The notes under the pieces were generated by a model, which was not told the origin of the DNA, made no database searches, and was given only the letters and a program-made list of their open reading frames with translations. Source: Eubacteriales bacterium (lineage in GTDB: Bacteria > Bacillota > Clostridia > Oscillospirales > CAG-272). Taken from it: 64,000 nt of DNA. The position numbers were made by a program, and so were the translations under genes. Position 1 is the stretch's first letter. Every line of letters starts with the position of its first letter. Positions 6,978 to 32,803 of the stretch are shown one piece after another. Where the stretch lies: positions 1,865-65,864 of the forward strand of contig JAXDZV010000032.1 of the NCBI GenBank assembly GCA_034086705.1. The letters are read 5' to 3'.

Positions 6978-7029
6978 ACTGTTTTTCTCCTTCTTCCCGC
7001 ACAGGCAGGCATATTTTTCTTGGAAAGCG

Positions 7030-7929
7030 GTGATACTGTTGATACAAGCGAACCGAAAAAAGGCTGGTATTATTATTCTCGCCGCTGTTCTTCTTTTACT
7101 GTCAAGCGATTTTTTTGCAACCACCGCCATTTGCGATGCCTTTTTTGCCCGTACCATTTGGGATGCCGTCCCTGCAGATTGCACAGCCCTTTGCTTTCCC
7201 GGCGGGGAAGCTACGCTGCAGGGATACCTTTTTCGCCCCGCAGGGCAAAGCGCGGCGCTGGTTGTACTCGCACCGGGCCTTGGGTCTTGCATTGAAGCGT
7301 ACCTGGGCTGCGTGCGTTTTTTAACCCAAAACGGCTATACCGTGTTCTATTTTGATCCAACCGGCAGCGGAAAGAGCGGCGGAAACAGTGCCCTTGGGTA
7401 CGGGCAAATTGTGCAAGACCTACAGTACACACTCTGTTTTGTGCGGGAACAGGCCTACTTTGACAACGACCGCATGCTGCTGCTTGGGCACAGCCGCGGC
7501 GGATTTGCCGTATGCTGTGCAGCCAATGAACCGGATGTCAGTGGGGTTGTAGCGGTCGGCGCGCACAATAGCTGCATGGATGCGATTCTCGCAGCCTCCA
7601 CGCAGCATGTTGGCATGTTTGCCTATTGCAATTACCCCATGCTTTGGCTTGTGCAGGCAATGCGTACGGGCGTGTCATCTGTGCGCCTGCGTGCAGACCG
7701 GGTGCTTGCACAAAGCAACACGCCGACCCTGATTTTTCAGGGCAGATGTGACCGCGCCGCGCCACCGGATGCCTACTCTGTCTATGCATATCGTGATAAC
7801 AGCTTTCCTGCTTCCGTTCAATTTTTCCTATATGACGCTGCAGACAGCTCGCATTCTGCTATGCTGCAAGAAGATGCCCCCGCGCTGCAACAAATTCTTT
7901 CATTTCTCAATACAGTATTGGGGCAATAA
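7030..7929 (+). CDS. Alpha/beta hydrolase with N-terminal membrane anchor
   Basis: Anchor KKAGIIILAAVLLLLSS; elbow LLGHSRGG; later CDRAAP and SSHSAM. The ATG at 6934 would overlap the divergent gene, so GTG at 7030 is proposed; the start is uncertain. Confidence 0.7.
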   Translation: MILLIQANRKKAGIIILAAVLLLLSSDFFATTAICDAFFARTIWDAVPADCTALCFPGGEATLQGYLFRPAGQSAALVVLAPGLGSCIEAYLGCVRFLTQNGYTVFYFDPTGSGKSGGNSALGYGQIVQDLQYTLCFVREQAYFDNDRMLLLGHSRGGFAVCCAANEPDVSGVVAVGAHNSCMDAILAASTQHVGMFAYCNYPMLWLVQAMRTGVSSVRLRADRVLAQSNTPTLIFQGRCDRAAPPDAYSVYAYRDNSFPASVQFFLYDAADSSHSAMLQEDAPALQQILSFLNTVLGQ

Positions 7930-8020
7930 TCTCGCTCATCCCTTGTATTTTTTCATTATACTCTGCGCAAATCGCAAAAGCAACCGACAAATTTAAGGAA
8001 AAGGACCGGGTTTTATTTTT

Positions 8021-9064
8021 ATGGAAATTGTGTTAATCCCTGCACTGCAACCTGACGAAAAGCTGCTTACCCTTTTAGAGGCACTACAGGCACAAAAGCT
8101 GCAAGCCGTCGTCATAGACGATGGCAGCGGCGACGCTTATGACGAAATATTTCAAGCAGCGGAACAATACGGTGCCGTTGTGCGCCGTTTGGCACACAAT
8201 CGCGGCAAAGGCGGTGCGCTCAAATACGGGCTGCAACAAATTATGCAACTTTTTCCTGCATGCAGCGGCGTCATCACCGCAGATGCAGACGGGCAACATC
8301 GCATCAACGACATCCGCGCTGTTCAACAAGAATTGCAACGGGGAGCGGCTTTCGTTCTTACTGTGCGGAATCTGCGCGGCAAAATCCCCAAAAAATCAAA
8401 ACTCGGAAACACCCTCTCTCGCTATGTTTATACCATGTTCACCGGGCATTACTTTGCCGACAATCAATCCGGCCTGCGCGGTTTTTCCGCAGAGCAATTC
8501 AACTGGCTGCTTTTGGTCCCCGGCGAAAAATATGACTACGAATTGAATATGCTCTGCTATGCTGACAAGCAGGCTGTTCCAATTACCACCATTTCCATCG
8601 AAGCTATATACATAGACGGAAACCGTTCTACCCATTTTGATGCGCTGCGCGACACCTTTCGCATTTATCGGCTGCTGCTGCGCTCGGTATGGGCCTCCTT
8701 CGCCGGCGTTTTGCTAACGGAGGTCCTGGTTTTTCTGTTTTCCGTTTGGCTGGGCTATCGCTTTGTGCTGTGTACCGTCTTTACGGCAGTTTTGCTTTCT
8801 GCTTTGGTTACCATTTTGCTCAATCGTTATGTTGTTTTCCGCGCCGTTCCATACCGAGACGGCAGACGGCTGTTTGTTCACGCCTTTTGCCGAGGCCTGC
8901 TTTACACCGTCGGATGTCTGGCAGTCGGATATTATTTTCCGAATATCCCGCTGTTTTGGTCTTTCAACCTTTTTGCATTGCTGTGCATTCCTTTAGAATA
9001 CCTGCTGCATCGCGCACAGCATACAGGGCGGTATCGAGATGTCAATAAAGAAAAAATCTCCTAA
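8021..9064 (+). CDS. Bifunctional glycosyltransferase family 2 / GtrA-like membrane protein
   Basis: N-terminal GT-A fold (IPALQPDEKLL...VIDDGSGD...ADADGQH) and a C-terminal ~120 aa with four hydrophobic helices (GtrA-like). Confidence 0.75.
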   Translation: MEIVLIPALQPDEKLLTLLEALQAQKLQAVVIDDGSGDAYDEIFQAAEQYGAVVRRLAHNRGKGGALKYGLQQIMQLFPACSGVITADADGQHRINDIRAVQQELQRGAAFVLTVRNLRGKIPKKSKLGNTLSRYVYTMFTGHYFADNQSGLRGFSAEQFNWLLLVPGEKYDYELNMLCYADKQAVPITTISIEAIYIDGNRSTHFDALRDTFRIYRLLLRSVWASFAGVLLTEVLVFLFSVWLGYRFVLCTVFTAVLLSALVTILLNRYVVFRAVPYRDGRRLFVHAFCRGLLYTVGCLAVGYYFPNIPLFWSFNLFALLCIPLEYLLHRAQHTGRYRDVNKEKIS

Positions 9065-9114
9065 AATATACGAAGAGGCGTCCACCCGGGAACCCCCGCG
9101 GCGGGCGCCATTTT

Positions 9115-10065
9115 TCACAAACTGCGAAGCAGCTGCGCAGTGCAGGCGCAAACTGTTTGTGCCTGTGCACATCCGTGCATTTTGATCACCGGCTTTACCG
9201 TGCCTAAAAATGCAGCGCCCCCCCGCAAATTCAATTCATACAGTTCTGCCAGGCGCGCAAGAGTTTTTGCTTGGGCCGTCTGTGGGATTGGCAACATACG
9301 CACAGCCTCCATCGCGGCCAGGCCCGCCGCCTCATGTGCCTTCAGCAAAAGATTACCTGCATAGCCGTCACATACAATAACGTCTGCCACGCCGCTGCAC
9401 AAATCGCATCCTTCCACACAACCGATAAACCGGCCGCCCCGCGGGAACTCCAGAGCTTCCAAAGCTGCATATGCCTGCCGTACGCTTTGTGTTCCCTTGG
9501 TGCTCTCTCTCCCTACAGAAAGCACCCCAACGCGAATCTCTGTCCGATGCGGCATCAGCCGAGCGGCATACGCTGCACCCAGCAGTGCAAATTGCTCGTA
9601 TTCCCGCGTGCCGGGTGCCAAATTTGCACCGCAATCCAGCAAAATGACTCGATCTCCCTGCACCGTCGGTATAGCACTTGCAAGTGCGGGCGTTCGCAAT
9701 GGCGGAACCAGCCCCAAGCGGAAAATTGAACCAACCAGCAACGCACCGGTATTACCCGCACTGAGCAGCCCTACCGCCTCCTGCCGCGTGCGCAAGGCAT
9801 CCAGTGCCAACGCCATGGAAGTATCGCCAGCCTCATGCAAAATTGAGTCAGGTGCGTCGCCGGGGGCAATCTGCCGCTCTGCAGGCAAAAGCTCTACTCG
9901 GTTTGCATCCAAAAGGCCGCTTTGTAACGCCTGCTGCACTGCTTCTCCCTGCCCAACCAGTAAAAAAGAGAGATCTGCCTCTGCCTGCAGCGCCATCGAC
10001 GCACCTTGCACCAGTTCCCATGCGCCGTTGTCTGCGCCGCCTAAATCCAGAACAATTTGTCTCAT
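9115..10065 (-). CDS. plsX: Phosphate acyltransferase PlsX
   Basis: MRQIVLDLGGADNG..., SAGNTGA, LLDCGAN, CDGYAGNLLLK, IKMHGCA. Start at Met12 of the track ORF. Confidence 0.88.
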   Translation of the reverse strand: MRQIVLDLGGADNGAWELVQGASMALQAEADLSFLLVGQGEAVQQALQSGLLDANRVELLPAERQIAPGDAPDSILHEAGDTSMALALDALRTRQEAVGLLSAGNTGALLVGSIFRLGLVPPLRTPALASAIPTVQGDRVILLDCGANLAPGTREYEQFALLGAAYAARLMPHRTEIRVGVLSVGRESTKGTQSVRQAYAALEALEFPRGGRFIGCVEGCDLCSGVADVIVCDGYAGNLLLKAHEAAGLAAMEAVRMLPIPQTAQAKTLARLAELYELNLRGGAAFLGTVKPVIKMHGCAQAQTVCACTAQLLRSL

Positions 10066-10163
10066 TTTCGCCTCCGTTTCTGCTGCATCACCACACACCG
10101 TATCACCGCTTCCGCCACGCCGTGGGGGTGCAGTTGACTTTTGTCACAATTCTCGCTGTAGCA

Positions 10164-11828
10164 TTATTCAATAGCAAACAGATAGCGATATACCGGCTGC
10201 CCGCCGTATAAAAACCCAATTTCCGCCTCGGCAAAGTAGGTGCGCAAAACCTGCTCCACTTCTTTTCGCTCCTGCACTGACACATCATCGCCATAAAATA
10301 CCGTGATAACATCTACAGGCAACGCCGGATCCAACGCCTGCACCAACGCCTGTATAGTTTCCAGGGGCGTATCCTGCGCGCATAGCACTTTTTTCTCGCA
10401 CAGTCCCATATACGCACCTTTGCGAATAATAACACCGTCCAGCCGCGCATCCCGTACCGCCTGCGCCACAGCAGCGCTACAGACGCCAAGCATCCCCTTT
10501 TCCATTTCAGCATAAAACTGCTCGCTGTCTGTCACAGAGGGATCCATCAGAGAAAGTGCAGCAAAGCCTTGTGCCATCGAGCGGGTCGGCAACACACGCA
10601 CCTGTGCTCCCTGCCACAGCTGTGCCGCTTGCTGCGCCGCAAGAATCGTGTTCGAATCGTTGGGCAAAACAACCAGCTGCTCGGCATCTGTCAGAGCAAA
10701 GGCTTGCAGAAATTCATCCGTACTTGGATTCTCCGTCTGACCGCCGCGTACCAATGCCGCTGCGCCCATGCGCAAAAACAACTCTGCCATGCCATCCCCC
10801 TGCACAGCAGCTACCACCGCAAAGCGCTGCCGCTCGCGTTCCGCAGGCGTCACCGCAGAGGCTGCAAGCGCACGGGGATGCGACGCACTGTGTTGCAAGG
10901 TCATGTTTTCTATTTTCACCGATAAAAACTCACCCCGCGCATGTGCCCATGCCAATACCTTTTCCGGAGAGAAGGTATGAATATGTATCTTCACCAGCAC
11001 CCCCTCGCGAACGGCAACCAAAGAATCTCCAAGGGCGCTCAGCTCCTTTTTTGCCTCTTCCATAGAGAAAGCATCCAAATCTACGCACCGCGGCATCAGC
11101 TGTAAGATACATTCGGTACAGTAGCCATACTGCATCTGTGCGTCATTCTCCAACAGCAGGTTAACCGTGGCACCATCGGCCGTAAACGGTTCGCTGCGGC
11201 GTGGTTCCTGTCCGAGCAGAGCAGCCTGCATCCCCTCAAAAATACGCACAACCCCTGCACCACCGCTGTCTACCACACCGGCCTGCCGCAAAACCTCCAA
11301 CTTTTCCGGTGTGCGTGCCAGCGACTCCCGCAATACCGGTAAAAGAGCTGCAAACAGCGTTTCAAAATCCGCGAACGCACCGGCGGCCGACAAAAATTCT
11401 GATCCTTCGCGCAACAGTGTCAGCATCGTTCCCTCTACCGGCTGGAATACCGCGCGGTAACTTTTTTCCCGGCCAGCGTCAAAGGCTTTGCAAAAATCGG
11501 CAGGCGTCATGTCGGAAAGTTCTGCCGCCCCATCTGCAAGACCTCGAATAAACTGCGAGAGTATCACCCCGGAATTTCCTCGCGCGCCAAGTAACGCGCC
11601 GCGTGCAAATGCACCCAGATATACGCCGACCGACTCCGTTTGCACGGCTTGTGCCGCCTGCACGGCGCCTTCCATCGTTTTTGACATATTTTTCCCGGTA
11701 TCTCCATCCGGGATGGGGAATACATTGAGCGCATCAATTGCCTGCATATCGTTTTGCAGGCATGCCCAGCCGCCCCGCAGCAGTGTATGCAGACGCACGC
11801 TGTCCAAAACCTGCGTTCTTATCGCCAT
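10164..11828 (-). CDS. fakA: DAK2-domain fusion protein YloV / fatty acid kinase FakA homologue
   Basis: 554 aa. N-terminal Dak2 domain with PIPDGDTGKNM, central and C-terminal YloV-type domains; directly downstream of two DegV genes. Confidence 0.8.
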   Translation of the reverse strand: MAIRTQVLDSVRLHTLLRGGWACLQNDMQAIDALNVFPIPDGDTGKNMSKTMEGAVQAAQAVQTESVGVYLGAFARGALLGARGNSGVILSQFIRGLADGAAELSDMTPADFCKAFDAGREKSYRAVFQPVEGTMLTLLREGSEFLSAAGAFADFETLFAALLPVLRESLARTPEKLEVLRQAGVVDSGGAGVVRIFEGMQAALLGQEPRRSEPFTADGATVNLLLENDAQMQYGYCTECILQLMPRCVDLDAFSMEEAKKELSALGDSLVAVREGVLVKIHIHTFSPEKVLAWAHARGEFLSVKIENMTLQHSASHPRALAASAVTPAERERQRFAVVAAVQGDGMAELFLRMGAAALVRGGQTENPSTDEFLQAFALTDAEQLVVLPNDSNTILAAQQAAQLWQGAQVRVLPTRSMAQGFAALSLMDPSVTDSEQFYAEMEKGMLGVCSAAVAQAVRDARLDGVIIRKGAYMGLCEKKVLCAQDTPLETIQALVQALDPALPVDVITVFYGDDVSVQERKEVEQVLRTYFAEAEIGFLYGGQPVYRYLFAIE

Positions 11829-11831
11829 GGA

Positions 11832-12722
11832 TCAGTTTCCTCCCTCGAGCTGCACCTCTTTGCCAAAGCAAAACGCAATGATTGTACCGGGCCCAACCGA
11901 GGCCCCAACAATCGGTGCAATGGTATTGATATAGACGTCCTTAAAGGGAACCGTATCAGTGATCTGCTGTGCCAACGCCTGCGCCTGTGCCTGCGCATCG
12001 GCATGCGAAACAAACAGCGTTTGCTGCTGCGGCTGCTCCACCGCCTGTGCAATCTGCGCCGCAATTTCCGCACGTGCATTCGCCGCTCCCTTGACTTTTT
12101 TAATAGCAACATTGCGGCCCAGCCGATCGGAAATCAAAATCGGCTTAACGCCGAAGATATTGCCGAAAAAAGCGGACGAGGCGGTTACTCTGCCGGAACG
12201 CCGCAGATACTCTAAATCTTCCACCGTGCCGCACTGATTCATTTGTAAGCAATGCTGTTGCACAGTCTGTGCCACCGCAGCGGCATCTGTCCCCGCATCA
12301 CGCAATGCCGCCGCCCATAGGCAAAGCGCTCCCTGCCCAAGGGAGCTAATCAATGTATCGACACAATAAATCTGTCCTTGCGGGTATTCTTCCCGCAAGC
12401 TCTGCGCAACCATCCGCGCCGTATTGACCGAACCGGACAGTGCACTCGAACACCCCAAATATACTACATCCTGACCCTGCGCCAAGTAAGCGCGAAACGT
12501 TTGTGAAAACAGCGCTGCAGATACCTGCGTGGTAGTGATTCGTTTCCCCGCGCGCATATAATCATAAAACTGCTGCGGCGTATGCGCCTGCCAATCCAGG
12601 CGCGCCGGATATTCCGTACCGTCCACGGTATACCCCATGGTCACATAGGAAATCTGCCGCTGCTGCAGCGTTTCCATGCGCAAATCACATGTTGAATCCG
12701 TCAAAATGACAAACGGTCTCAT
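11832..12722 (-). CDS. DegV family fatty-acid-binding protein (FakB-type)
   Basis: MRPFVILTDSTCDL..., SSALSGS, typical DegV length (~297 aa). Start at Met8 of the track ORF. Confidence 0.85.
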   Translation of the reverse strand: MRPFVILTDSTCDLRMETLQQRQISYVTMGYTVDGTEYPARLDWQAHTPQQFYDYMRAGKRITTTQVSAALFSQTFRAYLAQGQDVVYLGCSSALSGSVNTARMVAQSLREEYPQGQIYCVDTLISSLGQGALCLWAAALRDAGTDAAAVAQTVQQHCLQMNQCGTVEDLEYLRRSGRVTASSAFFGNIFGVKPILISDRLGRNVAIKKVKGAANARAEIAAQIAQAVEQPQQQTLFVSHADAQAQAQALAQQITDTVPFKDVYINTIAPIVGASVGPGTIIAFCFGKEVQLEGGN

Positions 12723-12762
12723 CTTCTTCCTCCGTTCGTGCACCGAGCCTTGGTGCTGTCTT

Positions 12763-13698
12763 TTATTTTCCGCTCAAAATCTGCGTTAGAATTTCCTTTT
12801 CTCGTACGGCCCTCTGTGAAGTCGGCATACCGAAATAGAAAGCTGCACAAAGCCCCGGTCCGATAGATGCGCCGCAGGCCTTTCCCAAATTGACAAACAG
12901 AATCTCCCGCGGATGAATTTGCGCACGGATTCGCTCCGCATAAGCCTGCGCAAGCGATTCGCGTGCAGAATGCGTGATAACAATGGTCTGCTCTGCCGGG
13001 TCTTCAATGGTTTGTGCAATATAGGCAACCGCCGAATCCAGCATGGCGCGCTTGCCCTTGCACTTTCCCATCACTTCAACCATACCGCGCTCATTGAAAT
13101 CCGCCATCAGTTTTAGCCCCAGCATGGACCCGAAAAATGCCTTTGCGTTGGAAACACGGCCGGTTTTAACCAAGAAAAACAAATCGTCCATCGATCCGGA
13201 TTGGTGCAGTCGATGCCGGCTTTGCTCCAAATCCGCCACTACCTGCTCCGCAGATGCTCCCGCGCGCTGCAACGCGGATGCCCGCAGCAACAGCGCTGCA
13301 ATACCGCCGGAATAACACAGAGAATCCACACAGTAAATCTTGCTACCCGGATATTTTTCCATTACCTCTCTTGCAACCTGTACGGTAACGGCATAGGTAG
13401 CACTTAAACCGCTCGAAAGTGACAAACTGATTACATCAACACCGGCAGCGGCATACTTTTCAAATACTCTGTGTACTTCTCCCACAGTCGGCGTAGAAGT
13501 TTTCTGCAGCACTTTGCTGCTGCCCATTTTCGCAAAGAAGGCTTTAATGGCCTCCTGCGGCTCATCCAAGTCAATCAAAGTCTCCTCGCCGCTTTGATCG
13601 TATATAATCCCATGCAGATATTCGGGAATGCCAAGGCTCTCTCGCTGTGCACGTGTCAAATCGCAAGCGGTATCCGGAATCAATACGTACTCTCGCAT
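12763..13698 (-). CDS. DegV family fatty-acid-binding protein (FakB-type), second paralogue
   Basis: MREYVLIPDTACDL..., SLSSGLSATY, 311 aa. Confidence 0.85.
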   Translation of the reverse strand: MREYVLIPDTACDLTRAQRESLGIPEYLHGIIYDQSGEETLIDLDEPQEAIKAFFAKMGSSKVLQKTSTPTVGEVHRVFEKYAAAGVDVISLSLSSGLSATYAVTVQVAREVMEKYPGSKIYCVDSLCYSGGIAALLLRASALQRAGASAEQVVADLEQSRHRLHQSGSMDDLFFLVKTGRVSNAKAFFGSMLGLKLMADFNERGMVEVMGKCKGKRAMLDSAVAYIAQTIEDPAEQTIVITHSARESLAQAYAERIRAQIHPREILFVNLGKACGASIGPGLCAAFYFGMPTSQRAVREKEILTQILSGK

Positions 13699-13922
13699 CG
13701 CTTATTTCTCCCCATCCTTTTTCTCTCAGATGCGTTCTGTGCACACCGAATCCGGGGGCATGCAAGCAACGCTTTGTTTCTTCAGTATAGCACAAGATAC
13801 GAACGCTTTCAACAAATTTGTGTCAAAAAAATGTTGCATTTGCGAAAAAAGGTGGAAATTTTGAAACAATCTGTTATAATAATAAGAAACAGGTGTGTTT
13901 TGCACACCGATTTTATGGAATC

Positions 13923-14906
13923 ATGAGGACTGCTATGCTGGTATGTTGGATTGTTTTTGGTATTGCCGTTTTGCTACTCAGCGGCATCGCCGTAATGCTT
14001 TGGAAAACGGTTCCCATCGCCAAAAAAGTTTATTTTTCTCAGCTTGTACGCGAAACGCCGGAAAAATGGGGGCGCGTCTGTTCTGCACCCGATAACCCCG
14101 AGCAGCTTGCTATGTGGAATGCCGGCTGTGCCTGGGCAGAAGAAAACCGCACACATATGCGCCCCGTCCACATTCAAAACGGGCAGCTTCGCCTCGCGGG
14201 CGAATACTACGATTTCGGAGCGGAGCGCTGTGTTATCATTCTGCCCGGTCGCTGTGAAAGCTTATGTTACTCCTATTACTTTGCGCCACCTTACGTCAAA
14301 GCCGGCTGCAATGTTCTTGTCATTGATACACGCGCACACGGGCAAAGCGATGGGATGTATAATACTCTGGGGCGCTTGGAAAGTGAAGATCTGCTGCTAT
14401 GGATGGACTTTGCGCAGCAAACGCTCGGCAATCGCCAAATTTGCCTGCACGCCGTTTGCGTCGGCTCCAACACCGCGCTGCTTGCAGCCATTAGCTCGCG
14501 TCGCCCGGAGGCGCTTTTTGCAATAATATGCGAAGGTTGCTATGTCTCTTTCCGCGAAACCTTCCGCAGACACATGCTCTATATTCATAAGCCGACCTTT
14601 CCCGTTTTGGACCTATGTATGTGGATGATCCGTCACTACGCAGGCACAAATGTGCGGCGAATTGCACCAATACGCTTAGTGCGGCGCCTGCAACTTCCGA
14701 TCTTATATCTGTTCGGCAAGCAGGATGCGTTCTCTGTGCCGTCTATGAGCCGTCGGCTTTTCCAGGCAACCAAAACACCCCACAAACAGATTGTTTGGTT
14801 TGCAAAAGGTACTCATTCCCACTTACGGCTTGCCAACACCGCACAATATGACCAGAGCGTTCTTGCATTTTTACAGGCGCAAACACGCAGCAAGGAGGTA
14901 TCATGA
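13923..14906 (+). CDS. Membrane-anchored alpha/beta hydrolase, apparent Cys nucleophile
   Basis: N-terminal TM MLVCWIVFGIAVLLLSGIAVML. The elbow position reads LHAVCVGSN (A-x-C-x-G rather than G-x-S-x-G), followed by GKQDAF and GTHSHL. Start at the internal Met (13923). Confidence 0.7.
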   Translation: MRTAMLVCWIVFGIAVLLLSGIAVMLWKTVPIAKKVYFSQLVRETPEKWGRVCSAPDNPEQLAMWNAGCAWAEENRTHMRPVHIQNGQLRLAGEYYDFGAERCVIILPGRCESLCYSYYFAPPYVKAGCNVLVIDTRAHGQSDGMYNTLGRLESEDLLLWMDFAQQTLGNRQICLHAVCVGSNTALLAAISSRRPEALFAIICEGCYVSFRETFRRHMLYIHKPTFPVLDLCMWMIRHYAGTNVRRIAPIRLVRRLQLPILYLFGKQDAFSVPSMSRRLFQATKTPHKQIVWFAKGTHSHLRLANTAQYDQSVLAFLQAQTRSKEVS

Positions 14907-16864
14907 ACAAAAGGGAATCCATCCGGGCGCTGATCCGGCATAAAATGCACACGCTGGAACAAGCGCAACCAACTATGGCAGCTGTTTATGCCGGTATGTT
15001 CGATCGCCCGCAAGCCATTGCCTGTGAAACAAACGACGGCTGCAATATCACGCAACTTTCCTATGCTGAAATGGACCGCCGCATTACAGCGTTTGCCGCA
15101 GCACTGCGGCAGAAAATCGGTGCGCTGCACACGTATATAGCCATTGCAATGGAAAACGGACCGGATTTCATCACTGCATTTTGGGGCGTGTTGCGCAGTG
15201 GCAATAAGCCTTATCTTGTCAACTTGCGCCAACCGTTCTCGATGCAGACACAGGCATTGGCACAGCTGGAAGTACAGTATATCCTTGCCACGGCTCCCGG
15301 AAAGCTCCCCGGCGAGTATCTCCTTTTTGCAGACTTGTCTGACACAAACACCGCTTCTTATGCCGCCGAATCCGGCACTTTTATACAGCAAGACTCCGCT
15401 GCGTTTGAAAATGAGTTTGCACTTTCCTCTTCGGGTACCGGCGGTGCACCCGCCGTTTGTATTTACGACGGTGCGTGTGTGCTTGCCCAGCTGCGTGATG
15501 CCCGTAAGATCCTACAAAAAAACCACCGCATGCAGCAGCATGCAAACGGCGCGCTGAAGCAGCTGGCTTTTTTACCCTTTTATCACGTTTTCGGCTTGTT
15601 CGCCGTCTATTTTTGGTTTTCCTATTTCAGCCGTACCATCGTATTTGTGCGAGATCTGTCGCCCGCCGTATTATGCGGCACAGCGCAGTTGCACGGCGTC
15701 AGCCACATTTTTGCCGTTCCGCTGCTCTGGCATGAAACAGAACGCCTCTTTTTACGGCAGCTGCACCAAATGCCGCCTGCGCAGCAAAAAAATTTCTGGC
15801 GTATACATTCCTTTTCCTTATGGTTGCAGCAGCTATTTCCATACGCCGGCGCCACCGTGGCGCGTATGCTCTTTCGCAGCGTAAACAACCGCCTGTTCGG
15901 AAATACCGTTCGCTTTTGTATCAGCGGAGGTAGCTATATCCGTCCCTCCGCATTGCGTCTGTTCAATGGGCTTGGCTATCCTCTGCACAACGGCTATGGG
16001 CTCACAGAGGCGGGGATCACCTCCGTCGAACTTACTGCCCGCCCCAAACGACGCCTGTGCGGGGCAGTGGGAATGCCGTTTGCCTCCGTGCACTACAGCA
16101 TTGCCAAAGATGGCACTCTCACCGTACAGGGTGATGCTGTTTGCAGAGAAATTCTGCATGACGGGATGCGTATGCAGACAAACAAAAGCATTCAAACCGG
16201 CGATATAGCTTACTTTGACGGCAAAGGATATTTTATTCGCGGCAGACAGTGCGACACCGTTATAACAGAAAGCGGAGAGAATATCAGTCCGGATGCGATA
16301 GAACCGCTGTTTGCTCTGCCGGATGCCTGCGCGCTGTGCCTGCTGGGACTCGGAGAAGACTCCGCGGAGCAGCTGACGTTGGTTGTACAAATCAGCCCGT
16401 ATCTTCCGCCCACACGTCTGGAAGCGCTGCGGCAAACGATTCTGCAAATCAATCATGCATTGCCGCTGCCGCAACAAGCACGCGCGCTTTTTTACACAAC
16501 CGATCCGCTGTTGCCGCCGCAAGCTATCAAAGTGAACCGTCGTGCACTGCGCCAAGGCATTCAGCAGGGTACTATCCGTCTGACCCCCTTCACGGCGCCA
16601 TCCGTCCCCCCCACAGATACCTTTGATCCGGATAGCCCGCTTGCATGCCGTGTGCGACAAATCCTGGCACAAGCTCTGGAAATCGAGGAAACGAAAATCA
16701 CACCGGATGCGCAGCTATTCACGGATTTAGGCGCTTCTTCCCTGCAATATTTTGCAGCCGTCAGCGCTCTTTCGGAGGCGTTTTCCCTGCAGAGTTTTGA
16801 CCAAACGGAGCAATATTGCTATACGCTTCGTCAACTATGCGATTATCTTGCAAAGCATCTGTAA
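14903..16864 (+). CDS. AMP-binding (adenylation) enzyme fused to a C-terminal carrier-protein domain (A-T didomain)
   Basis: SSSGTGGAPAV (divergent A3), NGYGLTEAG (A5), TGDIAYFDGKGYFIRGRQCDTVITESGENISP (A7/A8), IKVNRRAL (A10 Lys). The last ~80 aa form a carrier domain, FTDLGASSLQYFAAVSAL. ATGA overlap with the upstream gene; AAGGAGG RBS. Confidence 0.85.
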   Translation: MNKRESIRALIRHKMHTLEQAQPTMAAVYAGMFDRPQAIACETNDGCNITQLSYAEMDRRITAFAAALRQKIGALHTYIAIAMENGPDFITAFWGVLRSGNKPYLVNLRQPFSMQTQALAQLEVQYILATAPGKLPGEYLLFADLSDTNTASYAAESGTFIQQDSAAFENEFALSSSGTGGAPAVCIYDGACVLAQLRDARKILQKNHRMQQHANGALKQLAFLPFYHVFGLFAVYFWFSYFSRTIVFVRDLSPAVLCGTAQLHGVSHIFAVPLLWHETERLFLRQLHQMPPAQQKNFWRIHSFSLWLQQLFPYAGATVARMLFRSVNNRLFGNTVRFCISGGSYIRPSALRLFNGLGYPLHNGYGLTEAGITSVELTARPKRRLCGAVGMPFASVHYSIAKDGTLTVQGDAVCREILHDGMRMQTNKSIQTGDIAYFDGKGYFIRGRQCDTVITESGENISPDAIEPLFALPDACALCLLGLGEDSAEQLTLVVQISPYLPPTRLEALRQTILQINHALPLPQQARALFYTTDPLLPPQAIKVNRRALRQGIQQGTIRLTPFTAPSVPPTDTFDPDSPLACRVRQILAQALEIEETKITPDAQLFTDLGASSLQYFAAVSALSEAFSLQSFDQTEQYCYTLRQLCDYLAKHL

Positions 16865-16875
16865 GGAGATTGATC

Positions 16876-17535
16876 ATGAAGCCTCTGAAACGTCCGCTGC
16901 AGCGGGTGAACTATCCGGTGCTGCTCTTTACAAAAATTACGGGCGCGTTGCCAAGCTGGCTGTTTTTTCGTCCGCGTATTTACCGTGTGCCAGATGCGCC
17001 GCGCGGCAAGCTGCCCGGCGGCACACTGCTTGTGTCCAATCATACCTCTTTGCTGGATTTTGTTTTATATCTACTCATTTTCCCTTGGAATACCCTTCGA
17101 TTTCTCATTGCGGAGGTGCTTTTTTCGAAAAGCACCGTGCTCAGCCGGCTGCTGTATGCCCTGGGGGGCATTTTTGTGGATCGCACCTCGCATGATTTTT
17201 CCTTTGTGGCAGATGCCGTACGCGTGCTGCAAAGCGGCGGCATCGTAGGGGTATTTCCGCAAGGGCGCCTGCCAATCGGAGATACGCCCTTTCCCTTTCT
17301 GCCAAGCGCCGTCTATATTGCGCTTCGCTCCAATGCCACAATTGTGCCGGTTTATACCGCAGGCGGATATGGCCGCAGACGCGCTCGCGTTGTTATCGGC
17401 GCGCCTTTTTCGCTGCGCTCGCTGCGCAGCGGCAGCGATGAACCAGATCAGGCAGAATTGGCTGCACTGAATGCGATGCTGCAAGCACGCGTTATGGAAC
17501 TTGCGCAAACGCTGCCGCAGGAGAAAAAGCAATGA
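16876..17535 (+). CDS. Lysophospholipid/glycerol-phosphate acyltransferase (PlsC/LPLAT family)
   Basis: HX4D motif NHTSLLD, FPQGR motif, 219 aa, AAGGAG RBS. Confidence 0.85.
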   Translation: MKPLKRPLQRVNYPVLLFTKITGALPSWLFFRPRIYRVPDAPRGKLPGGTLLVSNHTSLLDFVLYLLIFPWNTLRFLIAEVLFSKSTVLSRLLYALGGIFVDRTSHDFSFVADAVRVLQSGGIVGVFPQGRLPIGDTPFPFLPSAVYIALRSNATIVPVYTAGGYGRRRARVVIGAPFSLRSLRSGSDEPDQAELAALNAMLQARVMELAQTLPQEKKQ

Positions 17536-18182
17536 AGACGTTGTTTTTGTTTTTTATGGATCTGGGCAGGCTGCTCTGTGCGCCGCTTTTACTTGTATTT
17601 CGCGTCCGTCGCATGCATTTGGACGGCTCCCCGGCACACACGCTCCCAAAAGGCGGCGCAGTCTTGGTGTGTAACCACGTCGGCTTTTCCGACCCAATGG
17701 TGCTCGGTTGCGCCTTTGCTCCGCGCCGTGTCTTTTTTCTGGCCGCTGAAGCGGTGATGCAGCCGGGCTTGCGCGGTTTTTTGCTGCGGCATGCCGGCTG
17801 TATCCGGATTGACCGCAACGCATGCGATATTGAGGCGATTCGTTCCTGCGTTCAAGTGTTGCAAGCAGGTAAACTATTGTGTATTTTTCCGCAAGGACAT
17901 CTGCAGCATAGCGGCGCACTCGATCAAATCAAGCAAGGCGCCGCCATGATCGCACAGCAGGCACAGGTGCCCCTGATTCCCTTATATACCGATAAGCCCC
18001 CGTCACCGTTTCGCCGTCGGGTACTGATTGTTGGTCAAGCGATTCATCCGCAAGACTACTGTTTTGGAAAATTCCCTCTCCCTGCGGAGCTGCGTACACT
18101 TGCAGACACCACACGCACGGGTATGTTGCGCTGCAAACAAGCATATTCCGCATACGCATATCAAAAAGGAGGCCATTCATGA
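17532..18182 (+). CDS. Lysophospholipid/glycerol-phosphate acyltransferase (PlsC/LPLAT family), second copy
   Basis: HX4D motif NHVGFSD, FPQGH motif; ATGA overlap with the previous gene. Confidence 0.85.
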   Translation: MKTLFLFFMDLGRLLCAPLLLVFRVRRMHLDGSPAHTLPKGGAVLVCNHVGFSDPMVLGCAFAPRRVFFLAAEAVMQPGLRGFLLRHAGCIRIDRNACDIEAIRSCVQVLQAGKLLCIFPQGHLQHSGALDQIKQGAAMIAQQAQVPLIPLYTDKPPSPFRRRVLIVGQAIHPQDYCFGKFPLPAELRTLADTTRTGMLRCKQAYSAYAYQKGGHS

Positions 18183-18418
18183 ACACTTTTGCAGAGTTGC
18201 TCGCATTGCTTAAAACCGTCTTTGCAGACGAAATTTCTTTGCAGGGGATTACCGAGCAGACCCCACTTAACACACTGGGCATCAGTTCCGTCGGATATTT
18301 ATACCTGGCGCTCGCCGTGGAAGAACGTTTCGGCGTGCGGTTTTCCAATGCAGATTTCGTTGCGTTTTCCACTGTGGGTGACGTGGTACGCCGCATTGAG
18401 CAGGGGCACGCGCAATGA
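18179..18418 (+). CDS. Stand-alone acyl carrier protein
   Basis: 79 aa, LNTLGISSVGYLYLALAVEERFGVRF (4'-phosphopantetheine Ser context); ATGA overlap on both sides. Confidence 0.8.
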   Translation: MNTFAELLALLKTVFADEISLQGITEQTPLNTLGISSVGYLYLALAVEERFGVRFSNADFVAFSTVGDVVRRIEQGHAQ

Positions 18419-18819
18419 CCTTTCGCCAGGGACAACCGAGTAGGGGTGATTTGATCCGTGTACACGTTTCATTTTATGATCATTACGGCATTTATGAAAG
18501 CGACACGGCAGTATATGCATTCGGGCTGCCCGACAATACCGGCGTGGCACCTGAAGAAATCTGCGTGGTATGTACCCCGCTGGCTGTTTTCTGCGCCGGC
18601 GGCTTTGTGCAGGTCGCGCAGCTAACGCGTGCCGAACGCAAACAAGCCCGCTCTGCAGACCGGGTGATTGCGGCCGCTCGCGCACGTTTGGGAGAAACGG
18701 GATATCATATTTTGTACAATAACTGTGAGCATTTCGCAACCTCGTGCCTGTTCGGCACGCCGCGTTCCGCGCTGGTAGAAGAGGCACGCGCCTCAATTCG
18801 CAAAAAGCTCGGCCACTGA
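18415..18819 (+). CDS. LRAT / PLAAT (H-RAS-like suppressor) family NlpC/P60 acyltransferase-phospholipase
   Basis: Both family hallmarks are present: RGDLIRVHVSFYDHYGIY (GDLI...Y-H-x-G-I-Y) and HILYNNCEHFATSC (NCEHF catalytic Cys). 134 aa, no signal peptide. Confidence 0.8.
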   Translation: MTFRQGQPSRGDLIRVHVSFYDHYGIYESDTAVYAFGLPDNTGVAPEEICVVCTPLAVFCAGGFVQVAQLTRAERKQARSADRVIAAARARLGETGYHILYNNCEHFATSCLFGTPRSALVEEARASIRKKLGH

Positions 18820-18856: not shown

Positions 18857-20812
18857 ATGACTTTTTTACCTGTCACCGCAGAGGAAATGCGTCAACGCGG
18901 CTGGGATCGACCGGATTTTGTCTATGTCTGTGGCGATGCTTATGTCGATCACCCTTCTTTCGGCGCTTCCATTATCACCCGCGTACTGGAGGCGGAGGGC
19001 TTTCGGATCTGTATGCTGGCACAGCCGCGCTTTGACAGCTGCGAGGATTTTCGCCGCTTTGGCTGTCCGCGGCTTGGTTTTTTAGTCAGCGCCGGTAATT
19101 TGGATTCCATGGTTGCTCACTATACCGTTGCAAAACGGCGCCGTACTTATGACTATTATTCTCCCGGCGGAAAAACCGGCTTGCGTCCCGACCGCGCCTG
19201 TATCGTCTACACCAACCGGATTCGGCAGGCATACGGGCATATTCCGGTCATTTTAGGTGGGCTGGAAGCATCTTTGCGACGCTTTGCCCATTACGATTAC
19301 TGGGACGATCGACTGCGCCATTCCATCCTACTGGACAGCGGTGCAGATTTGTTGATCTATGGAATGGGAGAAAACACCGTGCGCCGCATTGCCAAACTGC
19401 TTGACCGCGGAATTCCAATGAACCGCTTACGTGACATCCGCGGCACGGCATGGCTTGGCAAGCGAAATGACCGTGTTCATTTTCCTGTGGCAGGCACAAG
19501 CGACTTTACCACTTTGCGCCAAAGCAAGCTTGCCGTTGCACGGGCATTTTCTTTGCAATATCGCAATACAGATGCCGTTCATGGCGAAGCTGTTGTTGAG
19601 TATTACGGTGACCGCATGCTCGTACAAAACCCACCCATGCCACCACTGACACAGCCTGAACTGGATGCCGTTTACGCCTTGCCCTACGCCCGCGCCTGGC
19701 ATCCGATGTATGATGCCGCAGGCGGTGTACCCGCTTTGGCCGAGGTTAAATTTTCCATCACACATAACCGTGGCTGTTTCGGCGGCTGCAATTTCTGCGC
19801 CATTACATTTCACCAGGGGCGTCAGGTAAGCTGCCGCAGCATTGCAAGTGTAACTGCGGAAGCAAAACTGCTCACCACACTACCTGATTTCAAAGGGTAT
19901 ATTCACGATGTCGGCGGACCGACTGCAAACTTTCGCCGTCCTGCCTGTGACAAGCAGCGTACGCAAGGCGTCTGCAAAGACCGGCACTGCCTGACGCCAA
20001 CGCCTTGCCCCGCACTGCGTGCGGAACACAGCGAATATCTGGAACTGCTGCGCGCCGTAGAAGCAGTTCCGGGGGTCAAAAAAGTGTTTATCCGCTCCGG
20101 CATTCGCTATGACTATCTTCTGGCAGACCGCACACCCGCCGCAGATGCATTTTTCAAAAAGCTGGTTCGCGACCATATTTCCGGGCAGCTTCGCGTCGCA
20201 CCGGAGCATTGCTCAGAAGCGGTTCTACACTGTATGGGCAAAGCCCCGCTTCAAGCTTACCACATCTTCCGCAAGCGTTTTTATACACTGTGTAAACAAA
20301 TGGGGTTGCAACAATATCTGGTGCCCTATCTGATGTCCTCACATCCGGGAAGTACCCTCTCAGATGCAGTTGATCTGGCGCTGTGCATTCGCCAATGGGG
20401 CTGTGAGCCAGAGCAAGTGCAGGATTTTTACCCAACACCGGGTACCGCCTCCACCGTTATGTTTTATACTGGGCTGGACCCTTTTACGGAGCAGCCGGTC
20501 TTTGTTCCGCGCGACCGACATGAAAAACAGATGCAGCGAGCCTTGCTGCAGCCAACACGGCCGCAAAACGCCCCGTTGGTGCGAGAAGCCCTGCAGCAGT
20601 GTGGCCGCACTGAGCTACTCGACGTACTACTGCACGGCTCAGCGCCCGCAAAATACCACCATTCGCCGCCGCAACCGGCAACTTCTGCCAAACGCAAACC
20701 CAGGCAGCACCTTTGCAAGCCGCAGACGCCTACCGCATCCCCACCGCGACCGCGATTGAAAAAAAAGCCCGCGCCCACGGGCAAACAAGCAACGAAGGGA
20801 AAACGATCATGA
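18857..20812 (+). CDS. ygiQ: YgiQ family radical SAM protein (UPF0313)
   Basis: N-terminal PDFVYVCGDAYVDHPSFGASII, radical-SAM CFGGCNFC, basic Pro/Lys-rich tail. Only 37 nt after the LRAT gene, with no hairpin between. Confidence 0.85.
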   Translation: MTFLPVTAEEMRQRGWDRPDFVYVCGDAYVDHPSFGASIITRVLEAEGFRICMLAQPRFDSCEDFRRFGCPRLGFLVSAGNLDSMVAHYTVAKRRRTYDYYSPGGKTGLRPDRACIVYTNRIRQAYGHIPVILGGLEASLRRFAHYDYWDDRLRHSILLDSGADLLIYGMGENTVRRIAKLLDRGIPMNRLRDIRGTAWLGKRNDRVHFPVAGTSDFTTLRQSKLAVARAFSLQYRNTDAVHGEAVVEYYGDRMLVQNPPMPPLTQPELDAVYALPYARAWHPMYDAAGGVPALAEVKFSITHNRGCFGGCNFCAITFHQGRQVSCRSIASVTAEAKLLTTLPDFKGYIHDVGGPTANFRRPACDKQRTQGVCKDRHCLTPTPCPALRAEHSEYLELLRAVEAVPGVKKVFIRSGIRYDYLLADRTPAADAFFKKLVRDHISGQLRVAPEHCSEAVLHCMGKAPLQAYHIFRKRFYTLCKQMGLQQYLVPYLMSSHPGSTLSDAVDLALCIRQWGCEPEQVQDFYPTPGTASTVMFYTGLDPFTEQPVFVPRDRHEKQMQRALLQPTRPQNAPLVREALQQCGRTELLDVLLHGSAPAKYHHSPPQPATSAKRKPRQHLCKPQTPTASPPRPRLKKKPAPTGKQATKGKRS

Positions 20813-21405
20813 GCGAGTTACAGGAAAAATTTATCCGCATTTATCGGGAGAATATTCAGCGCGAAGGCGCCGACAAGCTGCTTGACTGGCTCTGCTCTCC
20901 AGCCAGCGACTTTTTCACTGCGCCCGCTTCCACACGGTATCACGGCGCCTACGAGGGCGGTTTGTGCGAACATTCTATCAATGTTTATGAATGCCTGTGT
21001 GACTATTTGCAGCGGCCACGCGTGCGGGAAATGTACGACCTTGCCCCCTCCGCCCAAACCGTTGCTATCGTAGCCTTATTACACGATCTATGCAAAGTCA
21101 ACTGTTATAAGCCATCTTTTCGCAATGTCAAGGACGAAAACGGAACCTGGCACAAAGTGCCATGTTATGAGTTTGCCGATCCGTTGCCGTACGGACATGG
21201 TGAAAAAAGCGTATATATTATCAGCAGCTTCATGCGGCTGAGTCGTGAAGAAGCGTTTGCTATCCGCTTTCATATGGGCTTTTCAGCGACAGACGAAGCA
21301 CGGCTGGTCGGCGATGCATATGAAAAATTCCCTCTTTGTATTGCGGTATCGACAGCAGATTTGGAAGCTTCTTACTTTGTTGAATCACGCAAAACGAAGC
21401 AATAA
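20809..21405 (+). CDS. HD-domain phosphohydrolase
   Basis: STRYHGAYEGGLCEHS and ALLHDLCK motifs. ATGA overlap with the ygiQ stop; start at Met33 of the track ORF. Confidence 0.7.
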   Translation: MSELQEKFIRIYRENIQREGADKLLDWLCSPASDFFTAPASTRYHGAYEGGLCEHSINVYECLCDYLQRPRVREMYDLAPSAQTVAIVALLHDLCKVNCYKPSFRNVKDENGTWHKVPCYEFADPLPYGHGEKSVYIISSFMRLSREEAFAIRFHMGFSATDEARLVGDAYEKFPLCIAVSTADLEASYFVESRKTKQ

Positions 21406-23446: not shown

Positions 23447-25123
23447 TTAAAACAGCCCTGTAATTTGTCCGTCTGCATCCACATCGATTTGCTCTGCAGC
23501 AGGATGTGCGGGCAAACCGGGCATGGTCATAATGTCCCCTGTGCGTACAACCACAAAGCCAGCGCCGGCGCTGACACGCACATCCTTTACCGTCACAAAA
23601 AAGCCACTCGGCGCACCAAGCTTTGCCGGGTCATCGGAAAAGCTGTATTGCGTCTTTGCGATGCACACCGGGCAATGGCCAAAGCCCAAAGCCTCCAGCC
23701 GCGCAAGCTGCCGCTGTGCTGCCGGCGTATACTGTACCCCTTCGCCGCCGTAGACCCGGGTCACGACGGCGTTGATTTTTTCCTGCAATGGCGCCGCGTC
23801 TTCATAAGCGTAGCGAAAAGATGCCGTCTGCTCCGTACACAGCCTGATGACTTCCTGCGCAAGGGCCTGTGCGCCGGCTCCCCCCTGTGCCCATACGGTA
23901 GATGGAATCGCATGCACCCCTTGTGCTGCACAGGCCTGCACAACACAGTCTATCTCCCGGTCCGTATCGTCCGGGAAGCGGTTGACCGCGACCACGCATG
24001 GTAACCCGAACACATCCCGCATATTGCTCACGTGGCGCATCAAATTGGCAAGGCCCTTGTGCAACGCAGGGAGATTTTCTGCGCTAAGCTCTTTTTTCGC
24101 AACGCCGCCGTGCATTTTCAACGCACGTACGGTTGCAACCAAGACAACTGCATTGGGCTGTAAAGACGCCATGCGGCATTTAATATCCAGAAATTTCTCT
24201 GCTCCCAAATCTGCACCAAAGCCTGCCTCCGTTACAGTATATTCTGCGGTGCGCAGTGCCATCCGCGTAGCGGCAACGGAGTTACACCCATGTGCAATAT
24301 TCGCGAACGGCCCACCATGTACAAAAGCCGGGGTACCCTCCAGGGTCTGTACCAAATTCGGCTTCAGCGCATCCAGTAAAAGCGCCGTCATAGCACCCTG
24401 GGCATGCAAATCAGCCGCTGTTACCGGCTGATCCTCTCGGGTGTAGCCAACGATAATGCGCCCCAGCCGCTCCTTCAACTCCGTTACCGATGCGCTCAGG
24501 CACAACACTGCCATGATCTCACTGGCAACGGTGATGTCAAAACCGTCCTCCCGCGGGGTACCGTTCACCGAACCGCCCAGCCCGTCCACGATGTGTCGCA
24601 GCTGTCGGTCATTCATGTCAACACAGCGACGCCAAGTGATTTTTCGCGGGTCTATGCCAAGTGCATTTCCCTGTTGTATATGATTGTCCAGCATGGCAGC
24701 CAGCAAATTGTTTGCAGCGCCGATCGCATGGAAATCACCCGTAAAATGCAAATTGATGTCCTCCATAGGAATTACCTGGGCATAGCCACCGCCTGCAGCA
24801 CCGCCCTTGACACCAAACACCGGCCCAAGAGATGGCTCGCGCAAGGCAACCACGGCGTTTTTGCCCAAGCGGCGCAACCCGTCTGCCAGACCAATTGTGG
24901 TTGTCGTTTTGCCCTCTCCCGCCGGCGTTGGGTTAATGGCGCTTACCAGCACCAGCTTAGCATCCTGCCGCTGCGGCATACGCAGCAGGGAAAGATCAAT
25001 TTTTGCCTTGCGGCTGCCATAGCTTTCCACATAGCGCGCGTCGATCCCGGCACGAGCGGCAACCTCTGTAATCGGCAGGGGCTTTGCCCTGCGCGCAATC
25101 TCAAGATCGGATAAATATTCCAT
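23447..25123 (-). CDS. fhs: Formate--tetrahydrofolate ligase
   Basis: 558 aa, [18 protein letters not shown]..., P-loop [15 protein letters not shown]. Confidence 0.93.
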
Positions 25124-25143
25124 CGGTCTTTTTGCTCCTTTTT

Positions 25144-28848: not shown

Positions 28849-28851
28849 AGC

Positions 28852-30123: not shown

Positions 30124-30142
30124 TCTACGCCTCCCACACACA

Positions 30143-32061: not shown

Positions 32062-32134
32062 CTTTTCTTATTCCTCCTTATATGCACGGTAGCCGCTGCG
32101 TTACCGCCGCGTTTGCCCCGTAGATCTGTCTTTT

Positions 32135-32779: not shown

Positions 32780-32803
32780 ACACACTCCTTTTCCGCTGAC
32801 CTT

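Follow-up and report, generated by a model that had tools for sequence, protein, structure and literature searches.

The 64-kb stretch of Eubacteriales DNA studied here (64,000 nucleotides of contig JAXDZV010000032.1; hereafter, the window) carries between positions 13923 and 18819 a cassette of six genes that a first-pass annotation, made from the letters alone, had ascribed to carrier-protein-dependent acyl transfer without assigning a product. The gene-by-gene list of open reading frames (ORFs) contains, all on the + strand and in this order, an alpha/beta hydrolase (abH, 13923-14906), an adenylating enzyme of the ANL type fused to a carrier domain (A-ACP, 14903-16864), two acyltransferases of the PlsC/LPLAT type (PlsC1, 16876-17535, and PlsC2, 17532-18182), a free acyl carrier protein (ACP) of 79 amino acids (18179-18418), and a cysteine enzyme of the LRAT/PLAAT-type NlpC/P60 group (LRAT, 18415-18819). 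The close packing described before was borne out by the ORF coordinates and the sequence: start and stop codons overlap as ATGA at 14903, 17532, 18179, and 18415, with purine-rich stretches upstream of these junctions, and A-ACP and PlsC1 are separated by an 11-nt gap, where an AAGGAG (16863-16868) overlaps the stop codon and lies 7 nt before the ATG.

A Pfam scan of the six proteins returned exactly the families that had been predicted, all above their gathering scores (PF12146/PF00561 for abH, PF00501 and PF00550 for A-ACP, PF01553 for each PlsC, PF00550 for the free ACP, and PF04970 for LRAT), and the motifs quoted in the annotation (NHTSLLD, FPQGR, NHVGFSD, FPQGH, and NCEHF) were all present. 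Ketosynthase, condensation, thioesterase, and phosphopantetheinyl transferase (PPTase) domains were detected by Pfam neither in the six proteins nor in the scanned flanking ORFs, which make up most of the window, and ketosynthase and condensation families were also not found among the recurrent neighbor families of the 83 related loci described below. Since ketosynthase and condensation domains are lacking, a polyketide synthase, nonribosomal peptide synthetase (NRPS), or aryl-polyene cluster was rejected, as it had been at first reading. Apart from the copies in the cassette, no ACP, fab gene, or PlsC was found within the 64-kb window. The GC content is even across the window and the flanks carry housekeeping genes (nusG, rplA, mnmE, pur genes, hisS, prfA, and lepA), which identifies the region as native chromosome; a horizontally acquired island was rejected as well.

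Catalytic features of the six proteins

A-ACP matched PF00501 at 1.4e-31 and PF00550 at 6.4e-07. Among 42 aligned sequences, residues E369, T432, D434, R448, D451, and K543 were invariant and Y365 and G366 were more than 90% conserved; the ANL core motifs A5 (YGxTE), A7 (TGD), and A8 (GRxD) and the A10 Lys were all found in the family, and Ser613 of the carrier domain, the predicted phosphopantetheine site, was invariant too. The A4-type motif, LAFLPFYHVFGL (LPFYH-type), contains no Asp. In ANL enzymes, an A4 motif without Asp belongs to the acyl- or aryl-acid type, the Asp of FDxS being the residue that binds the alpha-amino group in amino-acid activators (NRPS, DltA, AlmE). Given the Asp-free A4, activation of an amino acid in the manner of Dlt or Alm enzymes is unlikely. 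The AF2 model of the protein (pLDDT 87) contains a helical insertion of ~55 residues at ~273-330. A Foldseek search with this model retrieved all ANL classes about equally, at 13-19% identity (~15% to solved AasS), and a phmmer search of the PDB with the A domain did not separate the classes either: the scores of the feruloyl-, OSB-, malonyl-, fatty-acyl-, and amino-acid-activating enzymes retrieved were indistinguishable. Judged from the model, the A domain appears to be a deep-branching ANL enzyme.

Both acyltransferases matched PF01553, PlsC1 at 3.3e-15 (NHTSLLD at residue 55, FPQGR at residue 127) and PlsC2 at 5.6e-25 (NHVGFSD at residue 48, FPQGH at residue 119). The HX4D motif is intact in both and conserved across 83 sequences, and block III reads FPQGR or FPQGH instead of FPEGTR. 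Scores against TIGR00530 (PlsC) were 46.9 for PlsC1 and 78.5 for the other PlsC, the cut-off being 102.95. The top full-length NCBIfam match of PlsC2 was PRK08633 (73 bits), an acyl-[ACP]--phospholipid O-acyltransferase, as were its other top full-length matches, in keeping with the Aas-like logic that had been put forward for the cassette. For PlsC1 as for PlsC2, the nearest solved structure by sequence was TmPlsC (5kym). The two proteins are old paralogues with ~31% identity.

The free ACP is acidic (family median pI 4.2) and matched PF00550 at 2.9e-09. Against the AcpP-type models of NCBIfam it scored 17-25 bits at best, where the cut-offs for housekeeping AcpP lie at 65-92. The motif around its conserved Ser is N-S-I in the family and I-S-S in the window, as against the DSL of AcpP, and its helix II/III region, NSIgmLYMAmalEEeF, is AcpP-like. 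In hhalign comparisons, the free ACP was as close to AcpP of E. coli and B. subtilis (both reference sequences having been entered by hand) as to the fused carrier, and a recent duplication was thereby rejected. The two carriers resemble each other no more than they resemble AcpP and are therefore not interchangeable duplicates.

LRAT matched PF04970 at 9e-20 (71.6 bits; gathering score, 24.3) and could be aligned with human PLAAT3 (4dot) at 7.5e-06, the His and the Cys of NCEHF being matched. Accordingly, His23 and Cys104 were invariant in 68 sequences. The third position of the triad is Gln in 66 of the 68 and Ala in the window protein and its 98%-identical cluster mate P0121, so that no second His occupies it. 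Neither a C-terminal hydrophobic segment or membrane anchor nor a signal peptide was found in the protein. Informative domain fusions were sought among the homologues, where the 13 matches were all single-domain proteins.

In abH, residues H176, C179, G181, D268, H298, and H300 were invariant among 36 homologues. The first-pass annotation had described the protein as an alpha/beta hydrolase; its nucleophile is Cys, not Ser, since Cys179 (within H-A-V-C-V-G) is invariant and the Ser that follows it is not conserved. The membrane anchor claimed for it was recovered as a predicted N-terminal transmembrane helix, and the AF2 model (pLDDT 93.9) shows a standard alpha/beta fold behind a long N-terminal helix (residues 2-41). 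The best Foldseek matches, archaeal Pf2001 esterase and monoacylglycerol lipases, were generic, and no specific family emerged. Lys residues are more numerous on the C-terminal side of the transmembrane helix than on its N-terminal side, and a large number of Cys are conserved, which suggests that the catalytic domain is cytoplasmic.

Conservation of the cassette and its linkage to a fak/plsX block

More than 1,000 relatives of A-ACP were present among the candidates scored. The best 120 had a single architecture of ~640 amino acids, and the few whose source was named came from Oscillospiraceae or Clostridia metagenome-assembled genomes (MAGs). In a scan that took one genome per species, relatives occurred in 332 species genomes, and the best 80 of these loci all belonged to MAGs of uncultured Oscillospirales (Acutalibacteraceae, Oscillospiraceae, Faecousia, Avispirillum, and others), mostly from the gut of humans, ruminants, and birds. 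The window proteins were then mapped onto 83 loci, of which 73 had at least 2.3 kb of downstream sequence and 35 had at least 9 kb on both sides (referred to as well-flanked). The same gene order recurred in more than 80 loci whose A-ACP is 39-58% identical to that of the window, so it is not due to chance, and the earlier claim of a linked set of genes withstood this comparison with related genomes. PlsC1, a ~650-nt slot for PlsC2, and ACP were retained at all 73 loci whose downstream sequence was long enough. PlsC2 seemed at first to be absent from 16 loci; this was a BLAST sensitivity artefact caused by divergence, as the slot was filled in every case. LRAT was kept in 59 of 66 loci, and in the other seven its absence was confirmed directly wherever downstream sequence sufficed. 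The conserved unit is therefore a five-gene core of A-ACP, PlsC1, PlsC2, ACP, and LRAT, with LRAT as an accessory member; the system is genuine, is strongly conserved, and is made up of enzymes from known families. The place of LRAT in the cassette thus stood as regards its family and NCEHF dyad, though not as a fixed component. The nearest relatives of the window, L002 and L005 (A-ACP 57-58% identical), have lost it, and the window protein has Ala for the conserved Gln; LRAT may be under relaxed selection or on its way to being lost in this lineage.

A second block was equally conserved. It consists of abH3 (-), abH2 (+), a family 2 glycosyltransferase (GT2; +), plsX, fakA, fakB, and fakB (-), abH (+), and sometimes a CE4 deacetylase. 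The distance from the core to fakA or plsX was no more than 10 kb in 34 of the 35 well-flanked loci. The core sits at either end of the block, the block itself being in either orientation; four arrangements result, and they argue for selection on proximity over inherited order. Adjacency that survives rearrangement at 39-58% identity is good evidence of functional coupling. The hydrolase abH, which at 50-69% identity is more conserved than A-ACP, is always divergent from fakB1, even where the core sits elsewhere. It is no less a member of the fak side than of the core and acts as a hinge between the two units. The six-gene unit first proposed therefore held for the five-gene core and not for the hydrolase, which travels with fakB1, and the wider system in the window, including two more hydrolases and the GT2, extends over ~6012-18819.

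Clustering of the unassigned neighbor ORFs revealed an Sfp-type PPTase of 165 amino acids adjoining the core in 30 relatives (e.g., L018:9325-9819 (-)), with PF01648 and PF22624 domains and AusB and AcpT as top NCBIfam matches. Its presence beside the core marks the carriers as private. A tblastn search with the relatives' protein gave no match in the 64-kb window, and the window carriers are therefore activated by an enzyme encoded elsewhere. The earlier statement that a PPTase is lacking was right for the window, by Pfam and by tblastn, and wrong for these 30 relatives. A CE4 deacetylase was present in 14 of the 35 well-flanked loci, and in many loci it lies between abH and A-ACP; its best NCBIfam match was the XrtA-system deacetylase (below threshold), followed more weakly by NodB, ArnD, and GlcNAc-PG deacetylase. 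The relatives include loci with the deacetylase and no LRAT and loci with LRAT and no deacetylase, and a search for the deacetylase in the 64-kb window found none. Among the neighbor families of the loci, no recurrent transporter or exporter was found.

In the window, the operon described as divergent from the cassette was confirmed on the - strand at 9115-13698. It comprises two fakB genes (12763-13698 and 11832-12743, both with DegV/FakB1 matches in NCBIfam), fakA (10164-11828; Dak2/FakA by Pfam on orthologous loci), and plsX (9115-10098; FA_synthesis by Pfam on orthologous loci). Beyond it, the GT2 gene (8021-9064 (+); PF00535) encodes a protein with C-terminal transmembrane segments at 219-329 whose NCBIfam matches, AglJ, PpgS, and ArnC, are below threshold; it resembles polyprenyl-phosphate glycosyltransferases, adjoins plsX, and was present in 33 of 35 loci. 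The membrane-anchored alpha/beta hydrolase abH2 (7030-7929 (+); PF12146/PF00561/PF00326) has a transmembrane segment and a Ser nucleophile (GHSRGG) and was likewise found in 33 of 35 loci; its start codon is uncertain, the ORF opening at 6934 and a GTG at 7030 being the likely start. The lysophospholipase-L2-like hydrolase abH3 (6012-6977 (-); HSMGG) matched PF12146 at 1.5e-41 and PRK10749 (lysophospholipase L2) at 1.8e-36, below threshold for the latter, and was present in 29 of 35 loci; its ORF extends to 7292 and its likely start is the Met at 6977. As listed, the abH3 and abH2 ORFs overlap by ~360 nt, and starts at 6977 and 7030 would give a short divergent pair.

In the divergent control region between fakB1 and abH (13699-13922, 224 nt), each strand has a promoter-like site, and a TTTCAACAAA box and a hairpin are also present. 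A promoter scan placed the sites at 13853-13880 (+) and 13812-13784 (-), each with 10 of 12 positions matched and an extended TG. The AT-rich box TTTTCAACAAAA, which reads TTTCAACAAA in the window (13806-13817), occurs at a similar position in 16 of 29 orthologous fakB1-abH spacers, a count that ignores kinship (besides the window, L008, L009, L013, L016, L018, L032, L040, L046, L047, L055, L056, L060, L062, L065, and L069). In the predicted fakB promoter, the -35 element is overlapped by the TTTTCAACAAAA box, which could serve both operons as an operator. The perfect hairpin GGTGTG-TTTTG-CACACC (13892-13908) lies between the predicted + promoter and the abH start and was not found in the other loci.

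Further genes were observed around the core and in the rest of the window. In 29 loci, small zinc-ribbon proteins with several transmembrane segments are encoded directly upstream of A-ACP (e.g., L039:9480-9935 (+)), and some of these loci have 2-4 such genes in tandem; the window has only a weak, unlinked relative at 51338-52030. In 26 loci, a DUF2953 protein is encoded between the core and abH3. Just 37 nt past LRAT, with no terminator-like site between them, a YgiQ-family radical SAM gene begins; it forms a pair with the next gene (the two together at 18857-21405), whose ~195-aa product has no Pfam or NCBIfam match and is 88% identical to its L002 counterpart, far above the conservation of the cassette proteins. 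Both were rejected as members of the system, as they lie downstream of the cassette only in the window, L002, and L005. On the - strand at 23447-32902, the window carries a purine/one-carbon cluster with formate-tetrahydrofolate ligase, a 1234-aa fused FGAM synthase, purD, and a formate/nitrite transporter, in which the PurH function is split between an AICARFT-only PurH and a separate PF07826 (PurO-like) IMP cyclohydrolase of archaeal type.

Proposed function and its alternatives

These findings led us to propose, with a probability of about 0.45, that the cassette is an acylation module that works through carrier proteins, modifies a membrane lipid, and draws on scavenged fatty acids. The gene content, catalytic motifs, conservation, and linkage are observed directly; the substrates, the product, and the sequence of the steps are all inferred from them. 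The ANL domain would adenylate a free carboxylic acid without an amino group, a fatty acid being the likeliest, and load it as a thioester onto its own C-terminal carrier at Ser613. The free acidic ACP would serve as a second acyl donor, charged in trans by A-ACP or, as we favor, by PlsX from the acyl-phosphate made by FakA/FakB. PlsC1 and PlsC2 would each move an acyl group from a carrier thioester to a hydroxyl group of an acceptor built on glycerol, on the cytoplasmic side of the membrane; this acceptor would be either a lysolipid or glycerol-3-phosphate and then lysophosphatidate, and the outcome would be two acylations with separately controlled acyl sources. The LRAT-like Cys enzyme would carry out an optional third acyl transfer, to N or O, and abH, with its catalytic domain in the cytoplasm, would form a thioester and thereby off-load or shuttle carrier-bound acyl groups, or else make the lyso-acceptor. 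As had been supposed from the start, the activated acid would be a fatty acid and the product a diacylated or N-acylated lipid.

This proposal is supported by the following observations: (i) the domains and their catalytic residues are intact and conserved; (ii) the core is kept in 73 of 73 loci, with fakA/plsX nearby in 34 of 35 despite the four arrangements; (iii) PlsC2 is most like the acyltransferase domain of Aas-type enzymes, and TmPlsC is nearest to both PlsCs; (iv) the A4 motif is LPFYH-type without Asp, and the A5, A7, A8, and A10 residues are kept; (v) the free ACP is acidic and AcpP-like, and Enterococcus AcpB offers a precedent (PMC6509188); (vi) the conserved block holds a lysophospholipase-L2-like hydrolase; (vii) an Sfp-type PPTase adjoins the core in 30 loci; and (viii) the Lys bias and conserved Cys residues of abH fit a cytoplasmic catalytic domain. 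Other observations weigh against it. The A domain is equidistant from fatty-acyl, aryl, dicarboxylate, and amino-acid ANL enzymes in both Foldseek and sequence searches. The canonical ANL P-loop (A3) reads T/S-S-G-T-T-G-x-P-K-G, and it is degenerate throughout the A-ACP family (consensus S-T-S-A-T-S-L-x-E-V, window S-S-S-G-T-G-G-A-P-A, with Lys in neither). Given the TIGR00530 scores below the cut-off and FPQG in place of FPEG, the PlsC acceptor need not be a glycerophosphate. The examined carriers of the cassette are all related Oscillospirales, so that part of the linkage could be inherited synteny, and the conserved GT2 neighbor, together with CE4 in 14 of 35 loci, leaves room for a glycolipid or surface-polymer target.

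By analogy, the cassette would work most like Aas/LplT grafted onto the Fak/PlsX pathway. In E. coli, Aas and LplT re-acylate lysophospholipids (PMC11416262), and Aas, like the cassette, combines a PlsC-type HX4D acyltransferase with an ANL enzyme by which a free fatty acid is converted to an acyl-carrier thioester. The cassette differs from it in that the genes are split rather than fused (25-41 bits against PRK08043, whose cut-off is 886), the carrier is fused to the ANL enzyme and accompanied by a second, private ACP instead of AcpP, and there are two acyltransferases. Moreover, no LplT-like transporter recurs near it, an LRAT and a Cys-hydrolase are added, and the hosts are of Gram-positive type. 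The FakAB-PlsX-PlsY-PlsC route for exogenous fatty acids (PMC10146087) and AcpB, an auxiliary ACP encoded beside plsX in Enterococcus and used for exogenous fatty acids (PMC6509188), share with the cassette the tie to fakB-fakB-fakA-plsX and an auxiliary ACP near plsX; they lack, however, an adenylating enzyme, a fused carrier, paired non-canonical PlsCs, and LRAT, and AcpB serves FabT regulation and PlsX rather than a private set of acyltransferases. AasS and AasC (PMC12086093, PMC6167442) are, like A-ACP, ANL enzymes that form acyl-carrier thioesters from free fatty acids for phospholipid synthesis, but AasS loads free AcpP, whereas A-ACP has its carrier in cis, a degenerate P-loop, the ~55-residue helical insertion, and only ~15% identity. 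In Vibrio cholerae AlmEFG (PMC4278540), an adenylating enzyme, a small carrier, and an acyltransferase likewise esterify a carrier-borne acid to a membrane lipid; AlmE, however, is a DltA-like glycine activator, unlike the Asp-free A4 enzyme described here, and AlmG is a lipid A late acyltransferase outside PF01553. The window LRAT shares the PF04970 fold and the His/Cys (NCEHF) dyad with LRAT/PLAAT enzymes and S. aureus LnsA, which transfer acyl groups via a thioester intermediate, including N-acylation (PMC7387801, PMC13559823). It differs from PLAAT and LnsA in having neither a C-terminal anchor nor a signal peptide, Gln (family) or Ala (window) instead of His as third triad residue, and no LnsB/CPBP partner. 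Since its gene adjoins that of the ACP, its donor may be acyl-ACP rather than phospholipid, as in BtrH, a papain-fold enzyme that takes an acyl group from ACP and N-acylates an amine (PMC10318531).

A more far-reaching form of this proposal strikes us as possible but unlikely. In it, the core and the Fak/PlsX block would form an unrecognised lipid assembly line of gut Oscillospirales with two orthogonal activation routes (FakAB/PlsX to the private ACP, and the ANL domain to its own carrier), two non-canonical PlsCs, and LRAT adding a third chain, building a lipid class that has yet to be described from bacteria, e.g. a tri-acylated or N-acylated glycerolipid or an aminoglycolipid, and it might replace PlsY/PlsC.

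Among the explanations that depart from the acylation module, the one that fares best, though we consider it improbable, is N-acylation of an amino-sugar lipid or surface glycan by the logic of Nod factor, lipid A, or HexSDF: GT2 would add an N-acetyl-hexosamine to a lipid or polyprenyl phosphate, CE4 would free the amine, and LRAT and/or the PlsCs would attach carrier-borne fatty acids. The position of GT2 beside plsX in 33 of 35 loci, that of CE4 between abH and A-ACP in many, the polyprenyl-phosphate-type matches of GT2, and those of the deacetylase to XrtA-system, NodB, ArnD, and GlcNAc-PG enzymes all fit this explanation, as does the BtrH precedent for N-acylation from acyl-ACP by a papain-fold enzyme. 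Pairs of GT2 and deacetylase yield aminoglycolipids in C. difficile (PMC10128005) and P. aeruginosa (PMC12713373), and HexSDF, GlcN-PG, and the ArnC/ArnD GT2+CE4 pairs resemble the GT2 of the cassette and the CE4 of its relatives. These systems, however, are without carrier-dependent acylation, and no flippase was seen at the cassette. The window itself has no deacetylase, only 14 of the 35 well-flanked loci have one, deacetylase and LRAT occur each without the other, and GT2 travels with plsX, not with the core.

Several features of the proteins bear on assembly on the carrier itself, which we hold to be quite improbable. Here, the A domain would tether a hydroxy or otherwise bifunctional acid to its own carrier, PlsC1 and PlsC2 would acylate this tethered backbone from PlsX-loaded ACP, and the Cys hydrolase would release or transfer the product as a thioesterase or as a shuttle of the SyrC/CmaE type. 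Cys nucleophiles occur in alpha/beta hydrolases such as the SyrC/CmaE acyl shuttles, dienelactone hydrolase, and PhaC. Like the SyrC/CmaE type, abH has an alpha/beta fold with Cys at the nucleophile elbow, Asp, and His, and its gene stands beside two carriers; unlike it, abH is membrane-anchored, has a fold nearest to esterases and monoacylglycerol lipases, and is linked in the genome to the fak promoter, not to the core. The scheme would give the two non-equivalent carriers distinct roles and employ both acyltransferases, and it accommodates the private PPTase of the relatives and a deep-branching A domain without assignable substrate. However, tailoring enzymes are absent, and a PlsC-family enzyme whose acceptor is tethered to a carrier is not known to us.

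We give little credence to a specialised or signalling lipid, i.e. a secreted or minor bioactive product (an N-acyl amine or amide, or an acylated small molecule) instead of a bulk membrane lipid. The A-T didomain, extra carrier, and Sfp-type PPTase do recall NRPS architecture, LRAT-type enzymes N-acylate (PMC7387801, PMC13559823), and the hosts are gut Clostridia, but the housekeeping chromosomal context, the native GC, and the lasting linkage to core lipid genes over hundreds of species are unlike patchy secondary-metabolite clusters, and no recurrent exporter lies in the neighborhood. Least credible is a housekeeping replacement, in which the free ACP, the PPTase, and the two PlsCs (as glycerol-3-phosphate and lysophosphatidate acyltransferases) would, with Fak/PlsX, be the sole route to phosphatidate while type II fatty acid synthesis (FASII) and/or PlsY is missing: the locus does hold all the other parts that lead from exogenous fatty acid to phosphatidate (FakA, two FakB, PlsX, ACP, PPTase in relatives, and two PlsC-type enzymes) and the 64-kb window, to which this view is confined, showed no other ACP, fab gene, or PlsC, yet neither the ACP nor either PlsC comes near the housekeeping cut-offs and the extra A-ACP would be superfluous.

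A search of the literature found no description of the cassette, which agrees with the earlier claim that no characterised system has this composition, although its coverage was incomplete and the result is absence of evidence only. The use of host and dietary fatty acids by Firmicutes is currently explained by FakAB, PlsX, PlsY, and PlsC. To this FakAB/PlsX pathway, the cassette appears to be bolted on as a conserved extra module. Enzymologically, it is novel in three respects: its ANL enzyme has the carrier in cis and a degenerate P-loop, its LRAT is a bacterial one encoded next to an ACP, and its membrane-anchored alpha/beta hydrolase has a Cys nucleophile. If the cassette indeed directs acyl chains or makes a new acylated lipid, membrane composition would have to be predicted differently for a large and little-studied section of the gut microbiota; such chain placement or such a lipid would also have a bearing on resistance to FASII inhibitors, and immune-active lipids could be produced.

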